This document shows positions 6,850 through 15,034 of a stretch of DNA of 64,000 nucleotides, piece after piece. The stretch comes from Escherichia coli (GTDB taxonomy: Bacteria > Pseudomonadota > Gammaproteobacteria > Enterobacterales > Enterobacteriaceae), in the NCBI RefSeq assembly GCF_003334765.1, contig NZ_QOWT01000001.1; one strand, 5' to 3'. Below the pieces are notes generated by a model, which saw nothing but the letters and a program-made list of their open reading frames with translations, was not told the origin of the DNA and did no database searches. Each line of letters begins with the position of its first letter. The first letter of the stretch is position 1. The position numbers were made by a program, and so were the translations under genes.

Positions 6850-9642
<2,793 letters not shown>

Positions 9643-9643
<1 letters not shown>

Positions 9644-10224
9644 TACAACTTCACCAAACCACTAAAGCCCATAAAGGCCAGAGACATAAGACCTGCGGTA
9701 ATTAACGCAATGGCATTACCGCGAAAAGGTGCCGGGACATCAGCCACAGCAAGGCGTTCGCGGATGGCGGCGAAGAGCACCATCACCAGCGAGAAACCGA
9801 CAGCGGCGGAAAAACCGTACAGCGCCGACTGCAAGAAATTGTGCCCGAGATTGATATTCAGCAACGCCACGCCGAGCACTGCACAGTTGGTGGTGATAAG
9901 CGGCAAAAAAATCCCCAGCAGACGGTAAAGCACCGGGCTGGTTTTGCGCACCACCATCTCGGTGAACTGCACGACCACAGCAATCACCAGAATAAATGCC
10001 AGGGTGCGCAGGTAAATCAGATTAAGTGGGATCAAAATCCACGTATCGATAAGCCAGGCGCAAATAGACGCCAGCGTCATCACAAACGTTGTTGCCAGCC
10101 CCATGCCCATCGCGGTTTCCAGTTTTTTGGAAACCCCCATAAACGGACAGAGACCGAGAAACTTGACCAGTACAAAGTTATTGACCAGTACAGTTCCGAC
10201 AAACAGTAACAGGTAGTCAGTCAT
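9643..10224 (-). CDS. rsxA: Rsx/Rnf electron transport complex subunit A
   Basis: 193-aa hydrophobic ORF, first gene of rsx cluster. Confidence 0.9.
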
Positions 10225-10300
10225 TTTTCGGCCTGAAATAAAAAAGCCGCCTATTATCCGTTAATCCAGAGCAGGCGACAACAGGTTAACTGTAAGGTTA

Positions 10301-10741
10301 TTACGGATTCACAAACGTCGCTTTTACCCGCGACGAGCGTTTGAAATAGGGGACGATCAATGCGGTTGCCAACAAAGTAAACAGCAACTGGCGAACGGCT
10401 ATGCCATCTTCCACGGGTGAAAAAGCGAATGCTTTTACTGCCAGCAATACGGAAATAAGCAGCCAGATAATATAGTGTTTAGGAACACAACGCCGACGTT
10501 TAAAGAAAGCGATGGTCAACCACAGTGTGTAATACCACAAGGCGATAGCGGTAATAAAAGAAACGCCCCATAAGATTTGTGTCGTCAGTGCTTGTCCGCC
10601 GAGCGTTTGAAATGTTTGCGGAGAAGATAACGCAGCGGTATACAGCAACAACGCCAGCGTCGTACTCAACAGAGCGACTAAAAGCCAGGCCAACGGGCCA
10701 AGCAACCAGCCTCCAATACGTTGTGGCGTTGTGGTGGTCAT
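10301..10741 (-). CDS. ydgK: inner membrane protein YdgK
   Basis: ORF-track ORF of 154 aa; start placed at internal Met (MTTTTPQRIGGWLLGPLAW...) to give 146 aa. Confidence 0.8.
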   Translation of the reverse strand: MTTTTPQRIGGWLLGPLAWLLVALLSTTLALLLYTAALSSPQTFQTLGGQALTTQILWGVSFITAIALWYYTLWLTIAFFKRRRCVPKHYIIWLLISVLLAVKAFAFSPVEDGIAVRQLLFTLLATALIVPYFKRSSRVKATFVNP

Positions 10742-10826
10742 AGGTTCTCCAGAATAGCGACGCAAACAGGCAAATCTAATTTTAGGGGCGTTATTATAAG
10801 GCTTTTATAACCGATCGCTACTTTCT

Positions 10827-11042
10827 TTATTGGACATAGTGCCAGACGGACTTCGGTACCTGGCCGAGGTCAAACAAACGCCCGCCAGAAACCAGCTCTG
10901 CGCGACGGTGATCGGCAGCACGATACATATTGATCAGTTCCTGATCGTCCGTCAGGGTGTAATTAAGATGGTCGTAGAGTTTTTCCAGACTTTCGAGTGA
11001 ACTGATTTTGCGAAATTTTAATAAGTAGTCCTGAACAGTCAT
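10827..11042 (-). CDS. cnu: Hha-family regulator Cnu (YdgT)
   Basis: 71-aa [53 protein letters not shown], Hha/YmoA family. Confidence 0.9.
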
Positions 11043-11314
11043 AAAAGGTCCATAAAATAATTAATACCAAAGGGGTAGGTATTATTAGTGATGATAAAAT
11101 TTCACCAAAAGTGAACGCTTGTGTTATTACAATAATAAGAATGCGCTGATGGCAAATATTCAGGGATGAAAAACTGCTCTGAAAAGAGTAACGCGCTTTA
11201 CTATCCCTGACAATCACCAACAACATCGAACAAGATAATAAATTCCTGGTTTAATATCCGACAAGTGAAAACATGCACCCGGACGGGCAGCATGTCGCTC
11301 CACAAGTGCAGAGC

Positions 11315-11440
11315 TTACTTGTGTTGTACCGAAGCACTCTGTTCAGGTGGCTGATAGTTGTCAATGTGACTCGCCACGCCAAGAAGAATGACTGAAACGA
11401 CAAGAACGATCCAACCTGTTAATTCAATAAGACGATTCAT
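11315..11440 (-). CDS. blr: small membrane protein Blr (41 aa)
   Basis: internal Met of the 66-aa ORF gives MNRLIELTGWIVLVVSVILLGVASHIDNYQPPEQSASVQHK, single TM helix; position between cnu and ydgJ. Confidence 0.7.
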   Translation of the reverse strand: MNRLIELTGWIVLVVSVILLGVASHIDNYQPPEQSASVQHK

Positions 11441-11682
11441 TACAGCCCACATCTCTCTTGATTGATCCATTAACTTCAGGGGGTAAATGTTACTTAGCAA
11501 TAATAGCTCCAGCAAGATTTTTACTGAGGTTTTTGCGATATTTAGCTTTTGTCGTTGGAAAATTCGCTATTTTTTTGACTTAAGTTAAACAACATCCCTT
11601 ATTGCTGGCAGGTTATTAAACTGTTGAGCGTGGGTAAAGGATAGTGTCAAATAGCCATCATACTTCAATGAGAGGCAATGAC

Positions 11683-12723
11683 ATGAGCGACAACATCCGT
11701 GTTGGGTTGATTGGGTATGGTTATGCGAGCAAAACCTTCCATGCGCCCCTGATTGCGGGCACGCCCGGGCTGGAACTGGCGGTAATCTCCAGCAGTGATG
11801 AAACAAAAGTAAAAGCCGACTGGCCAACGGTTACGGTTGTCTCTGAGCCGAAGCATCTGTTTAACGATCCCAACATAGACCTGATTGTCATTCCTACACC
11901 CAACGATACCCATTTACCGTTAGCCAAAGCGGCGCTTGAGGCGGGTAAACATGTGGTCGTTGATAAACCCTTTACCGTGACACTGTCACAAGCGCGAGAG
12001 CTGGATGCGCTGGCAAAAAGCCTGGGGCGTGTGCTGTCTGTATTCCATAACCGTCGCTGGGATAGCGATTTCTTGACGCTAAAAGGTTTACTCGCGGAAG
12101 GCGTGCTGGGTGAAGTTGCTTACTTTGAGTCTCATTTTGACCGCTTCCGTCCGCAGGTGCGCGATCGTTGGCGTGAACAGGGCGGCCCAGGCAGCGGTAT
12201 CTGGTACGATTTAGCACCACATCTTCTTGATCAGGCCATTACGCTTTTTGGTTTACCGGTCAGCATGACGGTAGATTTGGCACAGTTACGGCCCGGAGCG
12301 CAGTCGACCGATTATTTCCACGCCATCTTGTCCTATCCACAGCGGCGAGTCATTTTACACGGTACCATGCTGGCAGCCGCTGAGTCAGCACGGTATATCG
12401 TGCATGGATCCCGAGGCAGTTATGTGAAATATGGCCTCGATCCACAGGAAGAACGTCTGAAAAATGGCGAGCGTCTACCGCAGGAAGACTGGGGCTACGA
12501 TATGCGTGATGGCGTACTTACCCGCGTGGAAGGTGAGGAACGTGTCGAAGAAACGCTGTTGACGGTGCCTGGGAATTATCCGGCTTACTATGCGGCTATT
12601 CGTGATGCGTTAAATGGCGATGGTGAAAATCCGGTTCCGGCAAGCCAGGCAATCCAGGTAATGGAGTTGATTGAGCTGGGCATCGAATCCGCCAAACATC
12701 GCGCGACTTTGTGCCTTGCATGA
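11683..12723 (+). CDS. ydgJ: Gfo/Idh/MocA-family oxidoreductase
   Basis: start placed at MSDNIRVGLIGYGYASKTFHAPLI (Rossmann GxGxxG) within the 359-aa ORF, giving 346 aa. Confidence 0.88.
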   Translation: MSDNIRVGLIGYGYASKTFHAPLIAGTPGLELAVISSSDETKVKADWPTVTVVSEPKHLFNDPNIDLIVIPTPNDTHLPLAKAALEAGKHVVVDKPFTVTLSQARELDALAKSLGRVLSVFHNRRWDSDFLTLKGLLAEGVLGEVAYFESHFDRFRPQVRDRWREQGGPGSGIWYDLAPHLLDQAITLFGLPVSMTVDLAQLRPGAQSTDYFHAILSYPQRRVILHGTMLAAAESARYIVHGSRGSYVKYGLDPQEERLKNGERLPQEDWGYDMRDGVLTRVEGEERVEETLLTVPGNYPAYYAAIRDALNGDGENPVPASQAIQVMELIELGIESAKHRATLCLA

Positions 12724-12756
12724 AAAATGGATGGTGCATTTGCACCATCCATTTTG

Positions 12757-13758
12757 TTACTTCGCGGCGACTTTTTCTCGCAGTGCGCGTTTTTCCTCAG
12801 CGCTGAGGAAAGCCATTTCCAGACCATTAATCTGTGCCTGGCGGATTTGCTCGCGGGATAACCCAGCAGCTGGCGCGGCAACGGTATATTCGTGAATGAT
12901 ATCCACTCCCTGTACGCCGGGATCGTCAGTGTTAATGCTGGCACGAATGCCATGCTCAAGGAACGTTTTCAGCGGATGTGCAGCCAGCTCTGCTACGGTG
13001 CTGGTCTGAATATTGGAGGTCAGACAGGATTCAATACCAATTTGTTGCTCGGCGAGAAAATCCATCAGCGCCCGATCTTCAATGGCTTTTACGCCATGTC
13101 CAATACGCTCCGCACCCAGTTCACGAATCGCCTGCCAGATGCTTTCCGGCCCGGCAGCTTCGCCTGCATGGACGGTAATATGCCAGCCCGCATCACGCGC
13201 GCGGTTGAAGTGAGAAAGGAACAGACTTCCCGGGAAACCAAGTTCATCACCGGCTAAATCAAGTGCGGTAATCTGGTCACGGTGGGCTAAAAAGGCCTCC
13301 AGCTCTTGCTGACAGGCGGCTTCGCCGAAGGTCCGGCTCATAATGCCGATAAGCTTCGCCTGCACACCAAAGGTGCGGCAACCTTCACGTACGCCATCGA
13401 TCACCGCTTCGACAACACCCGCTACAGGCAGCTGATGTGCCATTGCCATGTAGCCTGGTGAAAAACGCAGCTCGACATAGTGCAGGCCGTGACGGGCTGC
13501 ATCTTCAATGTTTTCAAATGCCACGCGGCGACAGGCATCAAGAGAGGCGAGAACTTTAACGCCCCAGTCAAGTTTGGTCAGAAAGCTCACCAGATCGGGT
13601 TCGTTGGCAATGACCTGAACGTGGGGAATCAGTGTTTCCAGGGATTGTGCAGGAAGCGAGATATTATACTGGCGGCCAAGTTCAAGAATGGTCTGGGGAC
13701 GAATGTTGCCATCAAGGTGGCGATGGATATCAGTTAATGGCAGGGTGGTATCAATCAT
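12757..13758 (-). CDS. add: adenosine deaminase
   Basis: 333-aa [31 protein letters not shown]..., metal-dependent hydrolase motifs. Confidence 0.93.
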
Positions 13759-13861
13759 GGTCGCACTCTTTTTCTGGATATAAAAGTGCGCACCATTATA
13801 AAAACAAAGCAGGGTAAAAATCCACGATTGCGCAACGATTTTTTACGTTGCGCAATTGGGG

Positions 13862-15034
13862 TTAACGAACAGCGCGGATGGCGTTAATTAATCCAGCCAC
13901 ACCTTTTTCCAGTTTCGAACGTGGGCAGCCGGCATTGAGACGGACAAAACCACGACCTTCTTCACCGTAGGTATACCCCGGCATGATCGCGACTTTTTCT
14001 TGTTCGATAAGTGCTTTTTGCAACGCGTTGTCGTCAATATTCAACGGACGTAAATCAAGCCATGCCAGATAAGTGGATTGTGGGATCTGCCAGTTGAGTT
14101 CAGGAAACGCGGCGTTCATTTTATCTGCGATATACGTCAGGTTATCTTTCAGATAGATGCGTAAGGCATCCAGCCACGGCGCGCCTTGCTGATAGGCGGC
14201 GATATGGGCAGTTAACGCCAGTACCGAAGGGGAAGAAAGCCCATCACGGCCTTTCAGTGCCGATAAATAGGCATCGCGGCTACTGCTATTTTCTATAATC
14301 CCGTAAGCACCGGTCAGGGCGGGAATATTGAAACTTTTCGAGCCCGACGTTAGCAACGCCCAGTCTCCGCGAGCCACATTACTCCAGGGAATATGCGGCT
14401 GCTCGCCCCAAACCATATCCATATGGATTTCATCGGAAATAACCCGCACACCATGACGCTCGCACAGGTCAGCCATGATCTCCAGCTCATCGCACGTCCA
14501 CACTTTCCCGGTAGGATTCTGTGGGCTACACAGGAGCATAATTTTACATTCTGGTTTCGCCAACACGGCTTCCAACTTGCCCATATCGCAAAACCAACCA
14601 TCAGCCTGCTTCTCTAAAGCAACGGGCATTACTGTGCGCTGGTTACCTTCAATGGCCTTGTAAAATGCGTCATAGGCGGGTGTGTGGATCACCACGCCTT
14701 CACCTGTTTCAGACCACTGACGAATCAGTTCTGAAACCATATAGATGACAGAAGGGCCATACACCACCGTCTGAGAATCGATGGCGGTGTAATGCTGGGT
14801 GGAAAACCAGTGGGCAATAGCCGCGAGAAACTCATCGTTTTTCCAGCGGCTGTAGCCAAATACGCCGTGCATCAGGCGCTGATTCAGCGCCTCGATAATG
14901 CAGGGGGCAGTGGCAAAATCCATGTCTGAAATCGTGAACGGTAACAGGTCAGCAGTGCCGAAACGGTCAGCGACATAATCCCACTGTGTACACCATGTGC
15001 CATGACGATCCACGACCTTTGAAAAATCGAACAT
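13862..15034 (-). CDS. malY: PLP-dependent cystathionine beta-lyase / Mal regulon modulator
   Basis: 390-aa ORF MFDFSKVVDRHGTWCTQWDY..., aminotransferase class I/II fold. Confidence 0.93.
   Translation of the reverse strand: MFDFSKVVDRHGTWCTQWDYVADRFGTADLLPFTISDMDFATAPCIIEALNQRLMHGVFGYSRWKNDEFLAAIAHWFSTQHYTAIDSQTVVYGPSVIYMVSELIRQWSETGEGVVIHTPAYDAFYKAIEGNQRTVMPVALEKQADGWFCDMGKLEAVLAKPECKIMLLCSPQNPTGKVWTCDELEIMADLCERHGVRVISDEIHMDMVWGEQPHIPWSNVARGDWALLTSGSKSFNIPALTGAYGIIENSSSRDAYLSALKGRDGLSSPSVLALTAHIAAYQQGAPWLDALRIYLKDNLTYIADKMNAAFPELNWQIPQSTYLAWLDLRPLNIDDNALQKALIEQEKVAIMPGYTYGEEGRGFVRLNAGCPRSKLEKGVAGLINAIRAVR

Follow-up and report, generated by a model that had tools for sequence, protein, structure and literature searches.

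The minus-strand locus at positions 11315 to 11440 of the window (the whole 64,000-nucleotide stretch of E. coli DNA analyzed here) is the already known E. coli gene blr, and our analysis adds a small annotation point to it: the start codon conserved across the family is found four codons upstream of the curated one. Taken together, the data support, with a probability of roughly 0.85, the reading that the gene is blr as known, that the 66-codon frame surrounding it is an artifact, that the ATG at position -4 (counting the annotated ATG as position 0) is the ancestral start, and that the annotated 41-aa start is usable in E. coli or at least tolerated.

The list of open reading frames (ORFs) for the window contains a minus-strand frame of 66 aa at 11515..11315, which opens with a TTG at 11515-11513 and translates as MLELLLLSNIYPLKLMDQSREMWAVMNRLIELTGWIVLVVSVILLGVASHIDNYQPPEQSASVQHK. 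Within it, reading of the sequence placed the ATG of MNRL at 11440-11438 and a TAA stop at 11317-11315. These bound the curated blr CDS, 41 codons plus the stop (MNRLIELTGWIVLVVSVILLGVASHIDNYQPPEQSASVQHK; 11315..11440, minus strand), which is the same as the RefSeq blr CDS in K-12 and in strain E2865. RefSeq annotates this 126-nt CDS in K-12 ER3413, E2865, and MG1655, where it maps to 11440..11315 of the window, under the product names "division septum protein Blr" and "beta-lactam resistance protein." In MG1655 the gene is b4409 (1704551-1704676; protein YP_025303.1/WP_001300888.1). An 801-nt stretch around blr was matched in 5,425 of 5,426 complete E. coli genomes, some of them at 100%, and the E. 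coli genomes with blr annotated at the same coordinates were 100% or 99.9% identical to the window at the DNA level. E2865 was identical to the window over the 801 nt, and MG1655 differed at one base (11771), which lies outside blr. The 41-aa sequence, its coordinates, and the ydgJ-blr-cnu-ydgK-rsxA neighborhood are the same in the window as in K-12.

Both family models agree with this assignment. The NCBIfam equivalog model NF033231 (small_Blr) scored 90 to 91.8 bits, above its cut-off of 40 bits, on residues 27-66 of the 66-aa frame, equivalent to residues 2-41 in the 41-aa form. Pfam PF24673 (Blr_divisome) scored 87.1, with model positions 1-41 falling on residues 26-66. Each model thus covers only the last 40 or 41 residues of the longer frame. 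In the RefSeq tables for ER3413, E2865, and MG1655, blr has the divergent ydgJ on one side and the co-oriented cnu (ydgT) on the other, with ydgK and rsxA beyond cnu; in the window, ydgJ begins at 11683 and cnu (71 aa) occupies 11042..10827, which is the position expected of a Blr family member in Enterobacteriaceae. The product also has the size (about 40 to 55 aa) and the layout of the family, with one hydrophobic transmembrane (TM) segment followed by HIDNYQPPE. The best 15-residue Kyte-Doolittle window (mean of 2.71) placed the hydrophobic core of the TM segment, GWIVLVVSVILLGVA, at 11372..11416 on the minus strand. In the tail that follows, H25, I26, D27, N28, Y29, Q30, P31, and P32 were invariant in alignment A1 and E33 was nearly so; over 67 sequences, all of these residues were nearly invariant. 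The initial annotation had placed a 41-codon blr at 11440..11315 inside a 66-aa ORF and proposed a comparison with the curated K-12 annotation. The RefSeq CDS and the two models bear out that placement, and the 41-aa blr of MG1655 is identical.

Blr was described as a 41-residue inner membrane protein that alters susceptibility to inhibitors of peptidoglycan synthesis (Wong 2000, as summarized in a paper citing it) and is associated with the divisome (Karimova 2012, as cited in passages of PMC10470546, PMC10723866, and PMC7648144); its septal localization is likewise known from this literature. A passage of PMC10470546 reports cleavage of Blr by RseP, and one in PMC7648144 cautions that many of the two-hybrid partners of Blr may be false positives. 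Based on the literature on RseP substrates, Blr would be a single-pass inner membrane protein with a short cytoplasmic N terminus, one TM helix, and the conserved HIDNYQPPE tail. YmgF (72 aa) and DrpB/YedR are described in part of PMC7648144 as being, like Blr, small non-essential inner membrane proteins with two-hybrid interactions with division proteins; no sequence relationship between them and Blr was found or is claimed. Among data sets on small proteins and translation starts, the TetRP supplements (PMC4909307) did not list blr or b4409, the supplements of a Salmonella N-terminal proteoform study contained no blr entry, and in the part of the PIRT-Seq supplement that names it, blr appears only within a gene list.

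To compare start sites, blr loci from 66 species-level genomes were retrieved, giving 67 sequences from Escherichia, Salmonella, Citrobacter, Enterobacter, Lelliottia, Leclercia, Phytobacter, Kosakonia, Pseudescherichia, and other genera. Three in-frame ATGs lie within the 66-aa ORF of the window: 11470-11468 (51 aa, beginning MDQSRE), 11452-11450 (45 aa, MWAVMNRL), and 11440-11438 (41 aa, MNRL). The second of these, position -4 (11450..11452, minus strand), was an ATG in 66 of the 67 species, compared with only 29 of 67 for position 0 (11438..11440). Codon counts at position 0 were ATG 29, ATT 22, ATC 12, ATA 1, TTT 2, and TTC 1. With these codons, position 0 behaves like an internal hydrophobic residue (I, M, or F), and the codon counts mark the annotated K-12 start as a derived Ile-to-Met position. 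All but one of the 29 species with ATG at position 0 kept the -4 ATG as well. We considered ATT, ATC, or ATA at position 0 as noncanonical starts and rejected the idea, since three species have TTT or TTC there, distant relatives have L or F, and the ATG at -4 is served by a well-placed Shine-Dalgarno (SD) element.

The pattern of substitution tells the same story. Second-position entropies for codons -1, -2, and -3 were 0.00, 0.33, and 0.73, and third-position entropies were 1.64, 0.55, and 1.39, so that a coding-type periodicity runs through codons -3 to -1 and ends at the invariant -4 ATG. Eight different codons occur at -1, all of them for I, V, or L. Among species with ATG at position 0, haplotype changes at -3 to -1 were mostly synonymous. 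At codon -2, the Escherichia species differ by a synonymous GCT/GCA change, and all six of their species-level sequences have the -4 ATG. Farther upstream, at codons -5 to -9, entropy was equally high at all three codon positions and stops were scattered through the 67 sequences, whereas the core of the gene showed the classic coding pattern. A profile search of 1.84 billion representative proteins returned only 34 relatives, and the more distant of them (MNSVLTRIVELIGW..., MENVFNRIVELIGW..., MTTVFTRIVELIGW..., and MSSSFSRILQMAGW...) have the -4 Met as their first residue, with L or F at position 0. Conservation, periodicity, SD placement, and these distant relatives argue that the -4 ATG, which gives 45 aa in most genera, is the ancestral start of the family. 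The ATG of the 41-aa form would then have arisen by an Ile-to-Met change in the lineage of Escherichia, Salmonella, and Citrobacter.

The SD placement was examined by alignment and by duplex energies. An SD-like element (ATGGAT here; AAGGAT, GGGAG, or AGGAG elsewhere) has an invariant GGA core at 11466..11468 (minus strand). Counting from the final T of GGAT, the distance from this core to the -4 ATG downstream is 12 nt, compared with 24 nt for the annotated ATG; the core overlaps the ATG of the 51-aa frame (11470-11468). The block A.GGA (ATGGAT, AAGGAT, AGGGAG, or AAGGAG) was the sole invariant block of the leader in alignment A3, and in most genera it precedes the -4 ATG by 10 to 12 nt. Where a species has a full SD at this block, pairing with the anti-SD reached -6.9 to -8.4 kcal/mol, and the spacing is right for the -4 ATG but wrong for position 0. 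For position 0, SD pairing in Salmonella and Citrobacter was about 0 kcal/mol.

In Escherichia the picture is less clear-cut. The K-12 haplotype, shared by the window, carries a purine run, AAGAGAG (11453..11459, minus strand), that forms the best anti-SD duplex of the leader (-4.6 kcal/mol). It is adjacent to the -4 ATG and at a distance of 12 nt from the annotated ATG, for which it may serve as a weak SD. A G/C polymorphism at 11457 turns the run into AACAGAG in other E. coli haplotypes, and sister Escherichia species have CATAG. Over Escherichia as a whole, both candidate starts have weak SD pairing only (-3.1 versus -2.4 to -2.9 kcal/mol), and the sequence therefore does not decide between them. 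The initial annotation had pointed to the ribosome binding site spacing of the ATG at 11440 as a check: the AAGAGAG run does lie 12 nt before it, but the conserved GGA core is 24 nt away.

Around the GGA core, a longer leader element at about 11462-11479 (minus strand), CTGT(G/A)TTTATGGATAAA (CTGAAGTTAATGGATCAA in E. coli), is conserved and was seen in sequences L008-L068 as well. In the Enterobacter, Lelliottia, and Leclercia group, a 6-nt insertion puts GGA 18 nt from the -4 ATG, which is too far for a normal SD. In these genera, the element could be a standby site or a site for a regulator or small RNA.

Upstream of the leader, phylogenetic footprinting predicted a -35 hexamer, TTGCTG (11510..11515, minus strand), the first three bases of which are the TTG "start" of the 66-aa ORF, and a -10 hexamer, TAACAT (11487..11492, minus strand). 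The arrangement TTGnnn, exactly 17 nt, TAnnnT was found in 65 of 67 sequences, with a spacer of fixed length and divergent sequence. The -10 hexamer was TAACAT in 52 of those 65 and TAAAAT, TACTAT, TACCAT, or TAATAT in the remainder, and CTTG and TA..AT were invariant in an alignment of 13 species (A3). A consensus promoter scan did not report this promoter, which has 7 of 12 consensus matches and fell below the threshold. Thus, blr appears to have its own sigma-70-type promoter, TTGCTG-17 nt-TAACAT at 11515-11487. The implied transcription start would be near 11480 (+/-3), downstream of the TTG at 11515, and the predicted leader of about 28 nt would contain a weak SD core (GGA, 11468-11466). 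The fold of the first 82 nt gave no significant structure (z = -0.81), and the idea that RNA structure masks one of the two ATGs was dropped.

At the other end of the gene, after the blr stop and before the promoter region of cnu, a consensus scan and an RNA fold identified a terminator-like hairpin followed by a short T run (11268..11296, minus strand). The terminator consensus match was at 11289..11276, and the fold of 11320-11255 had an energy of -25.5 kcal/mol (z = -3.0). Because the predicted promoter and this hairpin flank the gene, blr looks like a self-contained, monocistronic small transcription unit. Just 3' of the hairpin and about 190 nt upstream of cnu (11042..10827) is a promoter-like site at 11235-11264 (minus strand; TTGTCG, 18 nt, TATTAT; 9 of 12 matches), consistent with cnu having its own promoter.

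To characterize start choice within E. coli, divergent genomes of the species were compared and exact 90-nt haplotypes spanning -60 to +30 were counted; 5,401 complete E. coli genomes matched. Three haplotypes jointly account for 5,285 of these: AAGAGAG ATG TGG GCT GTA ATG, the type of K-12 and the window (3,034 genomes); AACAGAG ATG TGG GCT GTA ATG (1,854 genomes); and AACAGAG ATG TGA GTT GTA ATG, which includes O157:H7 and O145 strains (397 genomes). In the third, the codon after the -4 ATG is a stop, which leaves the annotated ATG as the only one able to give Blr; the 41-aa product is intact there and identical to that of the 1,854-genome haplotype. On the strength of these 397 genomes, the 41-aa start can probably be used in E. 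coli, or the species at least tolerates having no other, and a 41-aa call for the species is defensible. Blr is non-essential, so the TGA lineage could instead tolerate reduced or absent Blr, with a 41-aa start that is perhaps inefficient. The ATG TGA of these genomes, at the equivalent of 11447-11452 (L070:349-354; L071:349-354), forms a start-stop of one codon, with six bases between it and the annotated ATG downstream. This arrangement may reflect inactivation of the old start or termination coupled to re-initiation at the annotated ATG. Outside E. coli, one Citrobacter amalonaticus genome (L063) has AAG at -4 and has kept ATG at position 0.

The K-12-type haplotype of the window leaves both starts open, and it may well make both forms, an outcome to which we give somewhat less than even odds. 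A further tentative proposal, also short of an even bet, is that the -4 ATG is the main start of Blr, giving 45 aa, both in most E. coli (K-12 and the window haplotype included) and in every other genus.

Somewhat doubtful is exclusive use of the annotated ATG at 11440 by E. coli, with the -4 ATG as a relic, for example a start-stop or standby element. The curated annotation is in line with this, the TGA haplotype indicates that the upstream start is dispensable, and the E. coli-specific purine run plus TGGG provides weak SD-like pairing for the annotated ATG. However, with an accessible ATG just 12 nt farther upstream on the shared leader, we see no mechanism that would keep 30S subunits away from it, and the 5' region has no significant structure (z = -0.81). 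The synonymous nature of the GCT/GCA difference at codon -2 between Escherichia species, and retention of the -4 ATG in all six of their species-level sequences, likewise fit poorly with a relic.

The opposite extreme, that the K-12-type haplotype makes only the 45-aa protein from 11452 and that the curated 41 aa are four residues short, is unlikely. Its appeal lies in the conservation of the -4 ATG (66 of 67 species, and 28 of the 29 with ATG at position 0), the periodicity that reaches it, and the distance of the GGA core (12 nt, compared with 24 nt from the annotated ATG); ribosomes that initiate at the first ATG would also be expected to read through and occlude the second. On the other hand, the 41-aa frame is intact in the 397 E. 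coli genomes with TGA after the -4 ATG, and the AAGAGAG run, directly adjacent to the -4 ATG and 12 nt from the annotated one, would if anything favor the latter. Also against this reading are the curated annotation and the original description of 41 residues (Wong 2000, via the citing paper).

The two longer forms fare much worse; jointly, the chance that either the 51-aa or the 66-aa form is made in the window haplotype is slim at best. Relatives of Blr are recorded in databases as 41, 45, 51, or 53 aa. Salmonella and Citrobacter orthologues are annotated as 51 aa, those of Enterobacter and Lelliottia as 53, 45, or 41 aa, and that of Intestinirhabdus as 41 aa. All are like E. coli Blr in family membership (PF24673/NF033231) and in the architecture of promoter, leader, and -4 ATG. 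Their 51- and 53-aa forms, however, use a nonconserved ATG that overlaps the SD core, and some of their 41-aa forms need an ATT or ATA start despite the ATG four codons upstream. For example, PGAP gives 41-aa MNR... proteins where the DNA has ATA or ATT in Intestinirhabdus alba (L032, 1489-1503) and in Enterobacter (L033-L051; proteins P0085 and P0075). NF033231 and PF24673 were both built on the 41-aa form, beginning with the Met of MNRL, and the annotated starts of the family appear to be drawn toward this E. coli reference model. Placing every start at the -4 Met suits 66 of the 67 sequences and gives 45 aa in most genera, with longer products where the C terminus is extended. Such extension was seen in Leclercia (L035, L053, and L055) and Silvania (L062), in which the periplasmic C-terminal tail is 7 to 11 residues longer than in the other genera, from core codon 40 onward (…KPHALLKNSDI and …HTPPNNHS).

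Translation from the ATG at 11470 (MDQSREMWAVMNRL..., 51 aa), as in the PGAP calls of 51 and 53 aa in Salmonella, Citrobacter, and Enterobacter, is highly improbable. This ATG is found in many genera, the 6-nt insertion of the Enterobacter group keeps the frame, and both PGAP and sPepFinder call it. Against these points, the codon is AAG in nine species, in-frame stops or frameshifts separate it from the -4 ATG in at least 10 species, five Escherichia have TAG at -5, and the stretch lacks codon periodicity. The leader would be only about 9 nt and without an SD, and overlap with the invariant GGA better explains why the ATG is conserved. The Salmonella call is computational only: in the Venturini 2020 entry for it, the 51-aa Blr is a prediction by sPepFinder only and the Ribo-seq column is empty, and in the portion of Baek 2017 that deals with it, the 51-aa annotation is flagged as mis-annotated. 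We also considered the conserved ATGGAT(A/C)AA as a real start or an upstream mini-ORF and rejected both, as the ATG is AAG in nine species and the downstream frame is inconsistent.

As for the 66-codon frame, codon -5, directly before MWAV, is TAG in the five Escherichia representatives that are not E. coli, and many sequences from other genera have stops or frameshifts farther upstream. A stop-free run of 25 upstream codons has a probability of about 0.30 for random codons, so the open frame is no evidence by itself. Judging from stops, periodicity, and promoter overlap, only the last four of these 25 codons (11441..11515, minus strand) are possibly coding (11452-11441), and the rest would be promoter and 5' leader. 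Although no stop interrupts the frame in E. coli and proteins of 66 to 93 aa are reported by some gene callers, there is next to no chance that the whole TTG-initiated ORF is translated, given a TTG that lies within the conserved -35 box and so is probably upstream of the transcription start, the TAG at -5 in sister species, an extension with neither amino acid conservation nor periodicity and about 0.3 likely by chance, and family models that match only the final 40 or 41 residues. On the sequence evidence, then, the 66-codon frame is a mechanical artifact, its TTG being a predicted -35 box and its extension mostly promoter and leader, and the real alternative to the annotated start is the ATG four codons upstream (45 aa).

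These results clarify the earlier treatment of the locus. The initial annotation was correct in calling the 66-codon frame spurious, for which the TTG in the predicted -35 box, the TAG at -5 in sister species, and the lack of periodicity now give reasons. It took the start of that frame to be an upstream ATG, but the actual start is the TTG at 11515-11513. Its point that start choice matters holds; the choice was posed as 66 versus 41 codons, however, and missed the in-frame ATGs at 11470 and 11452. It also named translation from an upstream ATG as the observation that would count against a 41-codon blr. Comparative evidence now points to such a start at -4 for the family; in E. coli itself the -4 ATG is a candidate start.

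The correction has little importance beyond annotation hygiene, where a single conserved ATG would fix at least four public start choices. It could matter for tagged, synthetic, or structural Blr constructs, from which four N-terminal cytoplasmic residues could be missing. If Blr is indeed made largely from the -4 ATG, the textbook 41-residue Blr is four residues short and its "start" is an internal Ile-to-Met substitution; the O157:H7/O145 lineage would have finished a shift of start through a TGG-to-TGA change that left ATG-TGA before the new start; and the 51- and 53-aa annotations in Enterobacteriaceae, together with the 41-aa annotations that begin at ATT or ATA, would all be wrong in the same correctable way. 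The blr locus also offers a natural example of a start codon migrating downstream with all stages visible, from Ile at the new site, to both ATGs, to an old start closed by a stop codon or lost.

Several minor observations were made along the way. In about 24 genomes the 801-nt region is matched and the 90-nt start region is not, a sign that blr may now and then be disrupted or deleted. A laboratory K-12 record, NZ_CM170063.1, matched the 801-nt region over just 52%, split into two pieces, and lacks a blr feature; among the 5,439 matches to this region, one is on a record labeled as a plasmid. An Rfam scan of 9000-14000 returned two subthreshold matches, neither at blr: STnc390 at 12703-12761 (plus strand; the 3' end of ydgJ), with 23.3 bits against a gathering score of 50 (E = 0.1), and COG3860 RNA at 9935-9977 (minus strand), with 20.3 bits against 42.5. 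Both are probably chance matches. Finally, the mechanical ORF for ydgJ (11644-12723, plus strand) is 359 aa with a GTG start at 11644, compared with 346 aa from an ATG at 11683 in RefSeq (MSDNIRVGL...), and is thus over-extended upstream in the same manner as that of blr.
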